A stretch of 64,000 bases of DNA from Candidatus Uhrbacteria bacterium GW2011_GWF2_39_13. Its GTDB lineage: Bacteria; Patescibacteriota; Patescibacteriia; UBA9934; GWF2-40-263. The stretch is taken from the NCBI GenBank assembly GCA_000993535.1, contig LBWG01000001.1:22442-86441 (forward strand), in the 5' to 3' direction. Shown one piece after another: positions 27,263 to 31,351 of this stretch; position 1 is the stretch's first letter, and each line of letters begins with the position of its first letter. The notes under the pieces were generated by a model, which worked only from the letters and a program-made list of their open reading frames with translations, was not told where the DNA came from and did no database searches. A program made the translations under genes and the position numbers.

Positions 27263-27838
27263 TCATTGTTGTGTGACAAAATTCCAATTCACATAATTCC
27301 AAAATCCATCAATATATGAACCTCGATCATTACGGTGATCGATATAATAGGCGTGTTCCCAAACATCCAAGGTTAAAAGAGGTGTTTCATTTGTTTGAGC
27401 AGGTGTTTGAGCATCATGGAATCCTTTGATGAACAGTTTCCTTCCTTCTCCCCTGACAAGCCAAGCCCATCCTGATCCAAAATGAGTCATGGCAGTATCC
27501 GTAAACTGATTTTTAAATGCTTCAAAAGATCCAAAATCTCTTTCAATGGCTAAAGCAAGCTCTCCTGTTGGAACTCCACCATTAGGACTCAAACAGTTCC
27601 AAAAAAAACTGTGGTTAAAATGCTGGGCTGCAAGATTAAACACTTTTTGATTTTGCTCCCGAGAAGTCGCAATGACCTGTTCCAGGGATCTGCCTTCGAA
27701 ATCGGTTCCCAAAACAGCAGCATTAAGCTTATTGACGTATCCAGCATGATGCTTGCCATGATGGTAACGAAATGTTTCTTCGCTCATCCAAGGAGCAAAC
27801 GCGTCTGAAGGAAAAGGAAGGTTTGGTAGTTCAAACAT
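27263..27838 (-). CDS. Fe/Mn-family superoxide dismutase
   Basis: MFELPNLPF...HHGKHH...DVWEHAYYIDHRNDR. Metal ligands His-His-Asp-His are conserved. The start is set at the internal Met; the ORF track starts 20 codons upstream. Confidence 0.9.
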   Translation of the reverse strand: MFELPNLPFPSDAFAPWMSEETFRYHHGKHHAGYVNKLNAAVLGTDFEGRSLEQVIATSREQNQKVFNLAAQHFNHSFFWNCLSPNGGVPTGELALAIERDFGSFEAFKNQFTDTAMTHFGSGWAWLVRGEGRKLFIKGFHDAQTPAQTNETPLLTLDVWEHAYYIDHRNDRGSYIDGFWNYVNWNFVTQQ

Positions 27839-27845
27839 AGTATTT

Positions 27846-29057
27846 TTATACGAATAATTGATTAGACAAAAGACATTGACGTAAAGAACGATACACATTT
27901 TTCAGATCTGTTTTTTGAGGTTGAGGAGGAAGACGTTGGAGTAATCGATCAGCAAGCGTTCCATGATCCAGATAGAACTGATAGACATCATGGTATTGCT
28001 TAGAACCGTGCTGTTTTATGAGATGTGCCCAAACTTCTTTTGCGGTCACATTTTCTTTGATCAGACCAAAAATACGAGCATACGCAGAATCTACACGACA
28101 AGCCCCTGCATCACGGATTGTTCCTTGAAAAAGAGAAAAAAGATCCTCAACAGACCAAGATTTAAACCCTTCAATCTTCATCTGTTCTGGTTGTGCAAGC
28201 TCTTTTACAATATCAATAATAAGAGACAAAAAGGCAATATCCGCATGGACACACTCTTGAATATCCATGAGTCGAATCTCAATCGAACCTCGATCAAACC
28301 TTGCAATGGCTCCCCGAGAATTTAAGAAATACTGATTTAATAATTGATCGGGATTGTAAGGAGCGATCTGTTTTTGAATCTGAGAAAAAATAACCTGTTC
28401 ATACTCTTCTTCCGAAAAAACAGGCTCAGGGATTACACGACCCGTTAATGCAGGAAGTCGCTCTTGGTTTGTTTGATAATAATCAAGGCGCGTATCTTTT
28501 AGACCTGTCACCATTGTATTTGCTACAGGAGAAGAAGCCGTGAGTGCAGGGATCAAAGGAAGGATCAAGCGCACGGCCGCATGAAGCCTCTCAAATTCCT
28601 CATCTGTTTTAAAAGAAATATTCAAATGCGTACTCTGGACATTCGCCCATCCATGGCGGTAACAGTTAAAAATTTCATGATAACGCTCGTAAATCTCATG
28701 TCCTTCGTGTTTCCACAGGACTGTTTCTTGGGTTGGATCCATCCAAGGATGAATTCCTCCTGGGAGTAATCCCAATCCTCGAGAGGAAAGGAGCTTCTCA
28801 ATCTCTAATACATTTTGATAAAGAGCGGTCTCCATGGATGCAAGATCTGAAACAGGATCTGTCACTTTCAGTTCAACCAGATGTGAAACAAGTTCGTTGG
28901 ACCACGTGACAGCCCCTCGTTCAACATCAGAAACAAATGATCCTGTGGCATCAAAAAAAAGCTGATCAACCATGGGACGCACATCCAATGTTTGCTGATC
29001 AACGACCATATACTCTAGTTCAATGCCGAAACGTTCAAATAAAGCGTAGGATCTCAT
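27846..29057 (-). CDS. GCS2 / YbdK-type carboxylate-amine ligase (glutamate-cysteine ligase family 2)
   Basis: 403 aa. FGIELEYMVVD, GGIHPW, HLNISF, LPLIPALTASSP and IEIRLMD align with the conserved blocks of E. coli YbdK-type COOH-NH2 ligases. Confidence 0.82.
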   Translation of the reverse strand: MRSYALFERFGIELEYMVVDQQTLDVRPMVDQLFFDATGSFVSDVERGAVTWSNELVSHLVELKVTDPVSDLASMETALYQNVLEIEKLLSSRGLGLLPGGIHPWMDPTQETVLWKHEGHEIYERYHEIFNCYRHGWANVQSTHLNISFKTDEEFERLHAAVRLILPLIPALTASSPVANTMVTGLKDTRLDYYQTNQERLPALTGRVIPEPVFSEEEYEQVIFSQIQKQIAPYNPDQLLNQYFLNSRGAIARFDRGSIEIRLMDIQECVHADIAFLSLIIDIVKELAQPEQMKIEGFKSWSVEDLFSLFQGTIRDAGACRVDSAYARIFGLIKENVTAKEVWAHLIKQHGSKQYHDVYQFYLDHGTLADRLLQRLPPQPQKTDLKNVYRSLRQCLLSNQLFV

Positions 29058-30529
29058 AATGGAGGAATCGTTTTTTCAATATCTTTGCGCAATCGCGTCA
29101 TAATGGTGTCATAAAGAGAAACTCCAGCCACGCGATCCTCAATACCCGCATCGATACTTGGATTATCATTAATTTCGATCACATACACCTTTCCCCCGCT
29201 CTCTTTAAGATCGACTCCATATAAACCGCTTCCCATAAGGGATGAAGCCTTTATTGCTAAATCGAGGATAGATTTTGGTACTTGATCTAAAGCAAATGTC
29301 TCAAACGTGCCGCATGAATCTTTTTTACTCCAGTCATAAATCTGCCAATGATCTTTTGCCATGTAATACTTACAAGCAAAGATCGGTTTTTTATCTAATA
29401 TTCCAATTCGCCAATCAAATGTCGTAGGTAAAAACTCCTGAGCAATCACAAGATCTGAATCCTCCAATAACTGATCTAATGCCTTCTTTAAGTCTTCCTC
29501 GTTTTGAACCTTCATAACCCCTTGAGAAAAGGAGCTGTCAGGTTTTTTTAAAACAATAGGAAAACCAATAAGCTGAGCTAAGACCTCTTTATTTTCTTTA
29601 TGAACAATGACGGTCTTTGGAGTGGGGATATTGGCTTTCTCAAGAGCCTCCGCTAAATACACTTTATTAGAACAGCGCAAAATAGAAATAGGATCATCCA
29701 ATACAGCGATCCCTTCTGCCAAGGCGGTGCGAGCAAACCGGTAGGTATGATGATTCACGGCTGTGGTTTCACGAATAAACAAAGCGTCATACTCAGCTAA
29801 ATGGTCGTAATCCGCTTTTGTAATAAGATCAACTTCAAAACCCATTCGCTCTCCTGCTTCCACAAATTGTTGAAGCGCTTTTTTATCTGATGGAGGAGAG
29901 AGCTCTTCTGGATTCACAAGAATAGCTAAATCAAAGTTTGCTTTAAAAGGCTGAGAGTTAATGTGTCGTTTTTTATTAAAGTATTGCTCAGCAAATAATT
30001 GAATGTAAGGGAAATGAGTTTCAGGAATTTCTTTCATGGAGATGAGAGTCACACTTTGAAGAACCCATTTTTGTCGAAAAGTAAATTGTGCCCTTAAAAG
30101 AGGTGCACGAAAAAGTCCGTAAATTTTTTGAGAAAGCTCATTGTAACGAGCCGTAAGATTCTTTCCAAAATAGATACTCAGTGTAAATCGGTCTGCTTTA
30201 ATTTTGGATAATTTTTGTTGAATTAAATCATCAAGATCATCCGAAAGCGCGCGAACGATAGTGTTGGATTTTAAATCCTGGATGGTGGTAACGTTTGGAA
30301 TGACTTTATGACCTCGAGCTTCAGCGAGCAGCGAAACATAATATCCAGCCGACTGATACCAATAATTGCGAGAAAGATTAAAAATACGGACATTTTTCAA
30401 ATCATGATACAGAGGATCAGTTAAATACGCTTTCACAGAAACAATTTCTACACCTGGAATCTGGAGATGCCAATCACTTGGATGACTTACAACAACAATT
30501 TTTCTCATAGATGCGTCGAACCGACGCAA
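29054..30529 (-). CDS. RimK-type ATP-grasp ligase with N-terminal RLAN-like domain
   Basis: 491 aa. The C-terminal ~290 aa form a RimK-like ATP-grasp (IVLKKPDSSFSQGV, EFLPTTFDWRIGIL, YVIEINDNP). The N-terminal ~200 aa are an extension of the kind described as the RimK-like ATP-grasp N-terminal domain. A 4-bp ATGA overlap with the downstream GCS2 gene suggests translational coupling. Confidence 0.82.
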   Translation of the reverse strand: MRRFDASMRKIVVVSHPSDWHLQIPGVEIVSVKAYLTDPLYHDLKNVRIFNLSRNYWYQSAGYYVSLLAEARGHKVIPNVTTIQDLKSNTIVRALSDDLDDLIQQKLSKIKADRFTLSIYFGKNLTARYNELSQKIYGLFRAPLLRAQFTFRQKWVLQSVTLISMKEIPETHFPYIQLFAEQYFNKKRHINSQPFKANFDLAILVNPEELSPPSDKKALQQFVEAGERMGFEVDLITKADYDHLAEYDALFIRETTAVNHHTYRFARTALAEGIAVLDDPISILRCSNKVYLAEALEKANIPTPKTVIVHKENKEVLAQLIGFPIVLKKPDSSFSQGVMKVQNEEDLKKALDQLLEDSDLVIAQEFLPTTFDWRIGILDKKPIFACKYYMAKDHWQIYDWSKKDSCGTFETFALDQVPKSILDLAIKASSLMGSGLYGVDLKESGGKVYVIEINDNPSIDAGIEDRVAGVSLYDTIMTRLRKDIEKTIPPL

Positions 30530-30706
30530 GGAGGTTTAAGAAAATAAAAATTCGAAGGAATCTATACAAATTGAGCTCAGCAGCAAACAGCTTTAATTGT
30601 TTATCTATTCGCCTTGCTTGATATAAGCATACAAAAATTGAATCAAAAAAAACAGAGCTCCGCCATGATGACACATGGAACTCTGTTGTAGGAGTAGAAG
30701 AAAACT

Positions 30707-31351
30707 CTAACTCGCCAGAAGGACAGCAGGGCTCCGATCATCGAAGTAATCGTCGACCAAGAAGAAGGATCCACACCACCGACCGCCACTGAAGTTGAGG
30801 CAACAAACGTACAAGGTACCATCGACATCTTCAAAACCGGTAGCCCAGAAAAAGATATACTGGGTCTTCCTAGCACTGTTTTTCTTGAAGGAGTTCGGAA
30901 TGAGGTGGACGTTATCCAACAACGCCTTTATAACGTTGGGATGCAGAACATCCTTCTCAACAAGTCTCGTGAGCAGAGCAGCACCTGCAAGCCCTCCTGA
31001 AATCTGCTCAGGCTCTAAGTGCAAGATCATCTTGCGACCATCGACGAAAAGGTCTTTACCCTTTCGCATGACGGTTACAAGACCTGAACACTTCTTCCAC
31101 ACTTGTAGCTTAGCTTCCAGGATCGAAATGCCGATGGGGAAGTCGAGATTCACCTCAATGGTGTTTTCATCGATCTTCCTCCAAAACCAATCCTTGGAAA
31201 CAGGATCCCAGGGGTTCTCCTTCTGAAGGAATCGTTTGAATGCCACGACCCATTCGATGGTACTCTCACCTTCGAGTTTCGAGAATAAATCTTTCATGAG
31301 TCCAGCAATCTCGCGCAGAACTTTGACGTCGAACGCCTCTTCTGACATGTT
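30707..31351 (-). CDS. hypothetical protein
   Basis: ORF 30707..31459. The start is preferred at the internal Met (MSEEAFDV...), which has a perfect AGGAGA SD 7 nt upstream. No known domain. C-terminal CC...C...C cluster and an acidic tail. Confidence 0.5.
   Translation of the reverse strand, partial: NMSEEAFDVKVLREIAGLMKDLFSKLEGESTIEWVVAFKRFLQKENPWDPVSKDWFWRKIDENTIEVNLDFPIGISILEAKLQVWKKCSGLVTVMRKGKDLFVDGRKMILHLEPEQISGGLAGAALLTRLVEKDVLHPNVIKALLDNVHLIPNSFKKNSARKTQYIFFWATGFEDVDGTLYVCCLNFSGGRWCGSFFLVDDYFDDRSPAVLLAS

Follow-up and report, generated by a model that had tools for sequence, protein, structure and literature searches.

What two adjoining ATP-consuming ligases make in a bacterium with a reduced genome is the question raised by a gene pair of Candidatus Uhrbacteria bacterium GW2011_GWF2_39_13, a member of the Candidate Phyla Radiation (CPR) from Rifle groundwater. 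The window (the whole stretch of 64,000 nucleotides that was analysed) is part of a 103-kb contig, and the pair lies on its minus strand: a gene for an ATP-grasp enzyme with an N-terminal RLAN module (RLAN-RimK; 29054..30508) is followed by one for a GCS2/YbdK-type carboxylate-amine ligase (27846..29057). RLAN-RimK/COOH-NH2 ligase cassettes were reportedly predicted by comparative genomics by Iyer, Abhiman, Burroughs and Aravind in 2009, so the pair type is already known, and the window, which holds a minimal two-gene member, will not surprise a specialist. To judge from sequence comparison, RLAN-RimK and GCS2 are a co-inherited, translationally coupled unit, and the Uhrbacteria, which keep only the two ligases, have a stripped-down form of a cassette of four genes. 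Tentatively, and falling a little short of what could be called probable, the pair would carry out a two-step, ATP-dependent cytoplasmic synthesis of a small N-blocked, glutamate-containing peptide.

The domain content proposed in the preliminary description, which was made by eye from the letters and their translations, is borne out by profile searches. The N-terminal extension that it noticed on the ATP-grasp protein is RLAN (Pfam PF14401, aa 33-172, E 1.3e-47, 161.7 bits against a cut-off of 25), and the rest of the protein matches RimK (PF08443, aa 287-460, E 4.2e-12, 46.5 bits against a cut-off of 21). These Pfam positions are in the numbering of the maximal open reading frame (ORF; 29054-30529), which begins at a TTG and encodes the 491 aa first described; module and residue positions refer to a shorter, 484-aa product. 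The longer frame exists, but because the homologues all start at the internal ATG at 30508 (MRKIVVV..., with M1 invariant) and gene callers agree on 484 aa, the true product is most likely the shorter one, as read from the alignments. It is colinear over its full length with 119 homologues among the matches listed, with 56-89% identity over 99-100% of the length. Residues 1-178 make up the RLAN module (29975..30508) and residues 195-484 a complete RimK-like ATP-grasp module (29057..29926), which aligns to RimK and LysX structures in a PDB profile search. The residues listed for Pseudomonas aeruginosa RimK (K141, E178, R189, D248, E260, N262 and R64; PMC10092738) correspond here to K321, E358, R367, D433, E445, N447 and R246, and K321, R367, D433, E445, N447 and R246 are invariant in the family alignment (E358 is not in the invariant list). 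The catalytic residues of the ATP-grasp half are apparently intact, and the enzymes look active. The closest curated NCBIfam families are alpha-L-glutamate ligases (rimK_fam, 9e-24; MptN, 2e-23; LysX, 8e-21; CofF, 3e-10), part of which act on small molecules, and RLAN-RimK scores below the cut-off of every one of these models. It is also below the S6-ligase RimK models (NF007764, 22.9 against 331 bits; TIGR00768, 84.2 against 143.4 bits) and the glutathione synthetase model PRK12458 (36.7 against 408 bits). The gene rpsF does not lie within the window.

The partner, a protein of 403 aa, carries the GCS2 domain (PF04107, aa 10-275, E 7.1e-25, above the gathering threshold) and has the glutamine-synthetase-like fold of gamma-glutamate-cysteine ligase (gamma-GCL). 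Fold comparison gives 38.4 for the YbdK homologue 1tt4, 34.9 for plant gamma-GCL, 28.6 for yeast GCL, 24-25 for GshA, about 20 for PafA/Dop and about 14 for glutamine synthetases; PafA and Dop, to which a Pup-ligase-type tagging enzyme would be expected to be closest, are not the closest structural relatives. By sequence profile the match to YbdK reaches only E 4e-4, the score for the curated YbdK subfamily TIGR02050 is 62.8 bits against a cut-off of 176.4, and every GshA model stays below its cut-off (gshA_cyano, 29 against 249 bits). An N-terminal ExE motif and a C-terminal EIR motif are conserved, and the protein appears to belong to a separate GCS2 subfamily. In the deposited genome these genes carry the label "RimK domain-containing protein ATP-grasp"; in a sister genome the labels are "RimK family protein" and "glutamate--cysteine ligase".

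The two genes overlap by 4 bp (ATGA, 29054..29057, minus strand), the GCS2 start codon (ATG, 29057-29055) lying across the RLAN-RimK stop codon (TGA, 29056-29054), as had been described at the outset. Upstream of RLAN-RimK is an AT-rich spacer of 198 nt (30509..30706, minus strand) that is the probable promoter region of the pair; a scan for promoter consensus found none in the spacer, and promoter and terminator matches across the region were no more frequent than expected by chance.

How general this arrangement is was examined in 84 loci: 80 from one-genome-per-species contigs (spanning Bacteroidota, Planctomycetota, Proteobacteria, Verrucomicrobiota, Fibrobacterota, Nitrospirota, Acidobacteriota, Omnitrophota and others) and four of the closest relatives, with gene content scored by hidden Markov models (HMMs) in all and stop/start spacing in 71. 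GCS2 lies directly downstream of RLAN-RimK, on the same strand, in 73 of the 84 loci and in many phyla, which agrees with the expectation that the pairing would be conserved in relatives. The RimK stop and the GCS2 start share the 4-bp overlap in 34 of 71 loci, overlap to some extent in 45 and are within 20 nt of each other in 62. When the homologues of each protein are ranked, the two rankings correspond: the same Uhrbacteria come at the top, and Bacteroidota after them. Given the E-values and the retention of the pair in 73 of 84 independent loci, chance is excluded as an explanation. More than 8000 homologues of RLAN-RimK were found at E < 1e-5, with more than 8000 clusters at 90% identity, and a profile of RLAN alone retrieved 949 representatives at 50% identity among 1.84 billion proteins; with these numbers (about 950 at 50% identity) RLAN-RimK/GCS2 is among the more widespread enzyme pairs without a known product.

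Clustering of all neighbouring ORFs brought out two further conserved genes. One encodes a cytoplasmic, Peptidase_C39_2-like cysteine peptidase of about 245 aa (C39-like peptidase) and lies directly upstream of the pair in 63 of the 84 loci; the other encodes a protein of about 240 aa of the N-formylglutamate amidohydrolase family (FGase), lies directly downstream of GCS2 in 52 of the 84, and is the commonest fourth gene of the cassette. The modal architecture is the four-gene order C39-like/RLAN-RimK/GCS2/FGase (42 loci). Three genes without FGase are seen in 12 loci (plus five that are cut by contig ends), three genes without the C39-like gene in nine loci of Flavobacteriaceae, and the two ligases alone in five. 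A conserved third partner, for which a comparison of gene neighbourhoods had been suggested, is thus found elsewhere in the form of these two hydrolases, but both are missing from the window: HMMs trained on 62 C39-like and 47 FGase sequences gave no match in its six-frame translation, and revealed no hidden copy at the sister locus. Neither a small ORF nor a protein that might serve as a target emerged from the clustering as conserved in the 84 neighbourhoods.

The neighbourhood of the pair was also compared among the closest relatives. In the sister genome GCA_016188495.1 (89% identical), the order is alpha/beta-hydrolase, RLAN-RimK, GCS2, Exo_endo_phos, superoxide dismutase (SOD) and DnaJ, followed by the same downstream genes as in the window. 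At this locus (L087:2247-6723) the Abhydrolase_1 gene is upstream, and a 4-bp overlap joins the GCS2 stop to the Exo_endo_phos gene; these hydrolases are non-homologous to the C39-like and FGase proteins, yet occupy their positions in other phyla. One more distant relative (P0005/P0124) is 64% identical and belongs to a cluster that includes proteins named for Uhrbacteria RIFCSPHIGHO2_02_FULL_54_11; another, P0007, sits in a CPR-like context. Both P0005/P0124 and P0007 keep the overlapping ligase pair, with FKBP and DAO genes as neighbours in one and an AAA_33 kinase in the other, and without SOD in either. (Of the distant loci L089, L094 and L095 used below, the first encodes a protein that falls in a cluster with named Uhrbacteria proteins, and the second is judged CPR-like from its context alone.) Across these related Uhrbacteria and CPR-like genomes (64-89% identity) only the two ligases are kept while the neighbours vary, which argues that the pair works without further dedicated partners. 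In a neighbour-joining tree the two-gene sequences group together, and the adjacent clade includes a four-gene locus (P0006).

A clue to function comes from the loci that lack GCS2. Among the seven loci with neither GCS2 nor the C39-like gene, a GNAT acetyltransferase gene is adjacent or fused to RLAN-RimK in four and lies 5 kb upstream in one (L016). In Kiritimatiellales (L024) and Verrucomicrobia (L040) a separate GNAT gene overlaps the RimK start, and in two Prolixibacteraceae loci (L031, 6524-8479; L044, 6515-8479) GNAT is fused to the N-terminus of RLAN-RimK. GNAT is adjacent in none of the GCS2-containing loci, where the only match is a weak one of 31 bits on the opposite strand (L032). 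The difference, 4 of 11 loci without GCS2 against 0 of 73 with it, has a hypergeometric probability of about 2e-4, to be read with the reservation that the loci represent few independent lineages. Database proteins with an internal RLAN point the same way: all six that were tested (P0265, P0284, P0320, P0334, P0351 and P0396) are GNAT-RLAN-RimK fusions, of about 530-670 aa, and in the loci examined such fusions occur only where GCS2 is absent. It seems, then, that GCS2 can be replaced by another N-acylating enzyme, GNAT; an association of GNAT, adjacent or fused, with the absence of GCS2 was not found in the searchable literature. In one further locus (L038) FGase directly follows RLAN-RimK. 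At both L024 and L040 the separate GNAT is followed by a pyridoxal-phosphate-dependent decarboxylase and DapA.

The RLAN module itself was compared by predicted structure. In structural alignments its model aligns over 147-167 residues at 6-15% identity, and, independently, ArgX, LysX and RimK take the top ranks in Foldseek (E 9e-5 to 2e-3, TM about 0.5). It ends before the strands that bear the Mg ligands, and no lysine is invariant in the corresponding strand. As modelled, RLAN looks degenerate and truncated: it would be a copy of the pre-ATP-grasp domain, the central domain and the start of the C-domain. That it is a duplicate of the protein's own ATP-grasp half is a prediction from structure only, since an hhalign comparison of the two is colinear and not significant (probability 0.1%). 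Because the module is very strongly conserved (e.g., YQSxGYYVSLLAEARGH), a specific binding role is favoured over that of a mere spacer. A statement that RLAN is a degenerate ATP-grasp copy was not found in the searchable literature.

A two-step scheme would account for these features. In the first step, GCS2 would activate a carboxylate, most plausibly the gamma-carboxyl of glutamate, as an acyl-phosphate and couple it to an amino acid through the latter's alpha-amine, which would yield a gamma-glutamyl-X dipeptide. In the second, the RimK-like ATP-grasp module would activate the free alpha-carboxyl of the dipeptide and add an amino acid, which by the precedent of RimK, MptN, CofF and LysX would be glutamate or a close analogue. 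The outcome would be a tripeptide resembling glutathione or NAAG, or else a short oligomer. RLAN, taken as a truncated and catalytically dead copy, would probably provide a surface for docking or oligomerisation, with the intermediate or GCS2 as its partner, and the conserved ATGA overlap suggests that both enzymes may be made in a fixed proportion. In other lineages, the C39-like cysteine peptidase and the FGase-type N-acyl-glutamate amidohydrolase encoded in the operon may trim or recycle the product; in Uhrbacteria their genes would have been lost or never acquired. Glutathione is made by GshA and then the ATP-grasp enzyme GshB, and N-acetyl-Asp-Glu (NAAG) by the GNAT enzyme NAT8L and then the RimK-like RIMKLA/B. 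That either GCS2 or GNAT pairs with RLAN-RimK favours this same logic of an N-acylating enzyme followed by a RimK-like ligase, and FGase fits as a recycling enzyme because its type reaction hydrolyses N-acyl-glutamate. The substrates, the order of the steps and the product are what we infer from domain content, folds, the conservation of catalytic residues and the statistics of gene neighbourhoods.

Several observations pull in the other direction. RimK itself acts on a protein, and we know of no established physiological substrate of YbdK. Both proteins of the window score below the NCBIfam cut-offs of every characterised subfamily, so the transfer of substrates by homology is weak, and with substrates that are inferred the data leave room for a protein tail as well as for a small product. 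Among curated models the GNAT proteins match RimI best (48-58 bits, where the cut-off is 86.4); RimI acetylates protein N-termini, and a RimI-like GNAT is equally compatible with protein modification, as a papain-fold C39-like peptidase would also suit a de-conjugating role. Finally, the mutual exclusion of GNAT and GCS2 comes from two loci of the Planctomycetes-Verrucomicrobia-Chlamydiae (PVC) group, two Prolixibacteraceae loci and fusions that lack taxonomy.

These points lead to the alternative that survives best, a serious one though on balance unlikely, in which RLAN-RimK adds C-terminal glutamates to a protein encoded elsewhere and GCS2, acting like PafA, joins an amine (the lysine of another protein or a small amine) to the side-chain carboxyls of these glutamates, with the C39-like peptidase and FGase as the removing enzymes of the four-gene form. 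R246 and R367 are kept, the counterparts of R64 and R189, which bind poly-Glu in P. aeruginosa RimK; the RLAN model resembles LysX and ArgX, which dock the carrier protein LysW; papain-fold peptidases are typical de-conjugating enzymes; and the alternative partner, GNAT, is most like RimI. Against it, a tag or target gene is conserved in none of the 84 neighbourhoods. GCS2 is far closer to YbdK and gamma-GCL than to PafA/Dop, the NPxExxPPS loop that follows the first ATP-grasp strand does not align to the poly-Glu contacts S7, R8 and S14 of RimK, and the S6-ligase score is a small fraction of its cut-off.

The one neighbour that had been put forward as a target is the product of the gene immediately upstream (30707..31348, minus strand), and it does not hold up in that role. 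The gene is there, but its product has 213 rather than 214 aa, its 5' end is at 31348 and not 31351, and its C-terminus (...VDDYFDDRSPAVLLAS) is not the acidic tail first described: a few Asp are followed by a conserved hydrophobic PAVLLAS, which is not an S6-type (...EE) acidic end. It has no Pfam or NCBIfam match and no match to the C39-like HMM, is absent from the sister locus, and is one of only three such proteins among 5.8 billion, the other two at 60-61% identity; one homologue is encoded beside RNase HII and LysM-M23 peptidase genes with no ligases nearby. As an orphan with these properties it was ruled out both as a partner and as a target. A DDxxPAVLLAS C-terminal motif and several Cys and Trp positions are conserved among its relatives, and its gene has a clear AGGAG ribosome-binding site, which the ligase genes do not have.

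A bolder version of the small-peptide reading, quite unlikely as it stands, is that the Uhrbacteria use the pair to make, by a non-canonical route, a gamma-glutamyl tripeptide resembling glutathione, which would act as a new protective solute or low-molecular-weight thiol, and that the dead RLAN would channel the dipeptide between the two active sites; if true, this would give a biochemical function to a cassette of hundreds of bacterial lineages. More doubtful still is the proposal with which the preliminary description closed, namely that the pair makes a low-molecular-weight thiol (gamma-Glu-Cys or a glutathione analogue) as part of an oxidative-stress module with the adjacent SOD. GCS2 and ATP-grasp are indeed the enzyme-class pairing of GshA and GshB, and YbdK and gamma-GCL have the folds nearest to that of GCS2. 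The SOD gene (27263..27838, minus strand; 191 aa, starting MFELPNLPF) does follow the pair immediately, as described: it encodes an Fe-type enzyme (both SOD Pfam domains; best NCBIfam match Fe-SOD, 243.9 bits), starts 7 nt after the GCS2 stop and is probably co-transcribed with the ligases. SOD is also near the pair in the sister genome, where it is part of a local syntenic block, and antioxidant genes are common in groundwater CPR (PMC9938205). But none of the 80 loci from other species has SOD beside the pair, nor do the remoter relatives L089, L094 and L095; the only other locus that has it nearby is that of the 89%-identical sister, and there the Exo_endo_phos gene separates it from GCS2. 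The adjacency in the window says little about function, since on this contig genes usually lie in long runs on one strand. The neighbourhoods contain no recurring thioredoxin, glutaredoxin or peroxidase cluster, and the GshA and GshB equivalog models are far from satisfied. SOD beside the ligase pair is a local accident and not a conserved stress module, and as a functional partner or the sign of a stress operon it was ruled out; removing this link takes away a misleading lead.

Very improbable is a cyanophycin-like branched polymer, in which RLAN-RimK would extend poly-alpha-glutamate, GCS2 decorate the gamma-carboxyls and RLAN, like the N domain of cyanophycin synthetase, anchor the chain, with the C39-like peptidase and FGase as depolymerases: RimK is reported to make poly-alpha-glutamate in vitro (Kino et al. 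2011, as cited in PMC4431377), the ATP-grasp half has weak matches to cyanophycin synthetase, and two hydrolases accompany the ligases in most lineages, but Uhrbacteria and several other lineages have neither hydrolase, which is hard to square with a mobilisable reserve, and the exchange of GCS2 for GNAT is easier to explain by N-capping of a small molecule than by decoration of side chains. An anti-phage defence system was ruled out, as PADLOC gave no defence match for any of the five proteins tested.

The cassette genes look resident and not like a mis-assembled insert, given an ordinary CPR gene setting and a G+C content (0.405) inside the range of the window. The surroundings are housekeeping and cell-surface genes (topoisomerase I, HisRS, RelA/SpoT, ParAB, RecO, CTP synthase, FtsH, glycosyltransferases and S8 proteases), and the GCS2 protein is encoded on 13 contigs that were read (ENA, JGI and Logan assemblies). 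In minus-strand order, the orphan 213-aa gene is followed by the spacer, RLAN-RimK, GCS2, the Fe-type SOD and a DnaJ-domain gene. The last belongs to a block shared with the sister genome (21350-27177, minus strand), which comprises the 164-aa DnaJ-domain protein, two small genes (about 162 and 240 aa), a 665-aa protein without a Pfam match and then FtsH; FtsH is adjoined by a 133-aa protein with a eukaryote-type RRM_1 motif (Pfam; about 20819-21220, plus strand). Further away, at 42494-52048 (minus strand), two tandem S8 subtilisin-like proteases (695 and 683 aa) with faint FG-GAP matches are followed by a 504-aa ORF (called as 497 aa, with a weak PSII_BNR match) and a 1245-aa protein without a Pfam match, probably a cell-surface gene cluster.

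The initial description of the pair as an uncharacterised peptide-ligase system agrees with the searchable literature, in which RLAN/PF14401 is not mentioned, the cassette is not described and no biochemical characterisation was found. A Klebsiella ATP-grasp paper and a match in Paraburkholderia random-barcode transposon sequencing were set aside, as both concern other ATP-grasp families. Francisella tularensis FTT0178 ("rimK", 490 aa), annotated as a glutathione synthase/S6 modification enzyme, was not attenuating when deleted in a mouse infection (PMC2675058), and its length alone suggests that it is a member of the RLAN-RimK family. The cassette is spread over Bacteroidota, Planctomycetota, Proteobacteria, Verrucomicrobiota, Fibrobacterota, CPR and others, and the product should be simplest to look for in a CPR bacterium with a reduced genome that has retained both ATP-consuming ligases and no dedicated hydrolases. 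The comparison supplies several handles for doing so: the core that is conserved is the pair itself, GNAT can stand in for GCS2, RLAN is predicted to be a dead ATP-grasp copy, and FGase points to an N-acyl-glutamate bond.

Set against known systems, the window pair is closest to the predicted RLAN-RimK/COOH-NH2 cassettes, with which it shares the same two families in the same order and of which it is a class member; it differs from the usual cassette in consisting of the two ligases only, without the C39-like peptidase and FGase. Compared with LysX and ArgX, which work with LysW, there is no LysW-like gene nearby, and RLAN is without the catalytic C-terminal strands. With RimK of E. coli and Pseudomonas the ATP-grasp protein has in common the fold and the residues that bind ATP, Mg and carboxylate, but it carries an extra RLAN module of 180 aa, scores far below the S6-ligase model and has a different loop after the first strand; its partner is GCS2, while that of RimK is RimB or RimA. 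The GCS2 protein is only 15-16% identical to YbdK and gamma-GCL (1r8g/1tt4 and the plant GCL 2gwc), from which it is set apart as a distinct subfamily always paired with RLAN-RimK. Curated models give no orthology with GshA, GshB or Ngg, yet the logic is that of GshA/GshB and of NAT8L/RIMKLA/B, in which an amine-acylating enzyme is followed by an ATP-grasp enzyme that acts on the carboxyl, and the RLAN-RimK family contains both the GCS2 and the GNAT version of it.

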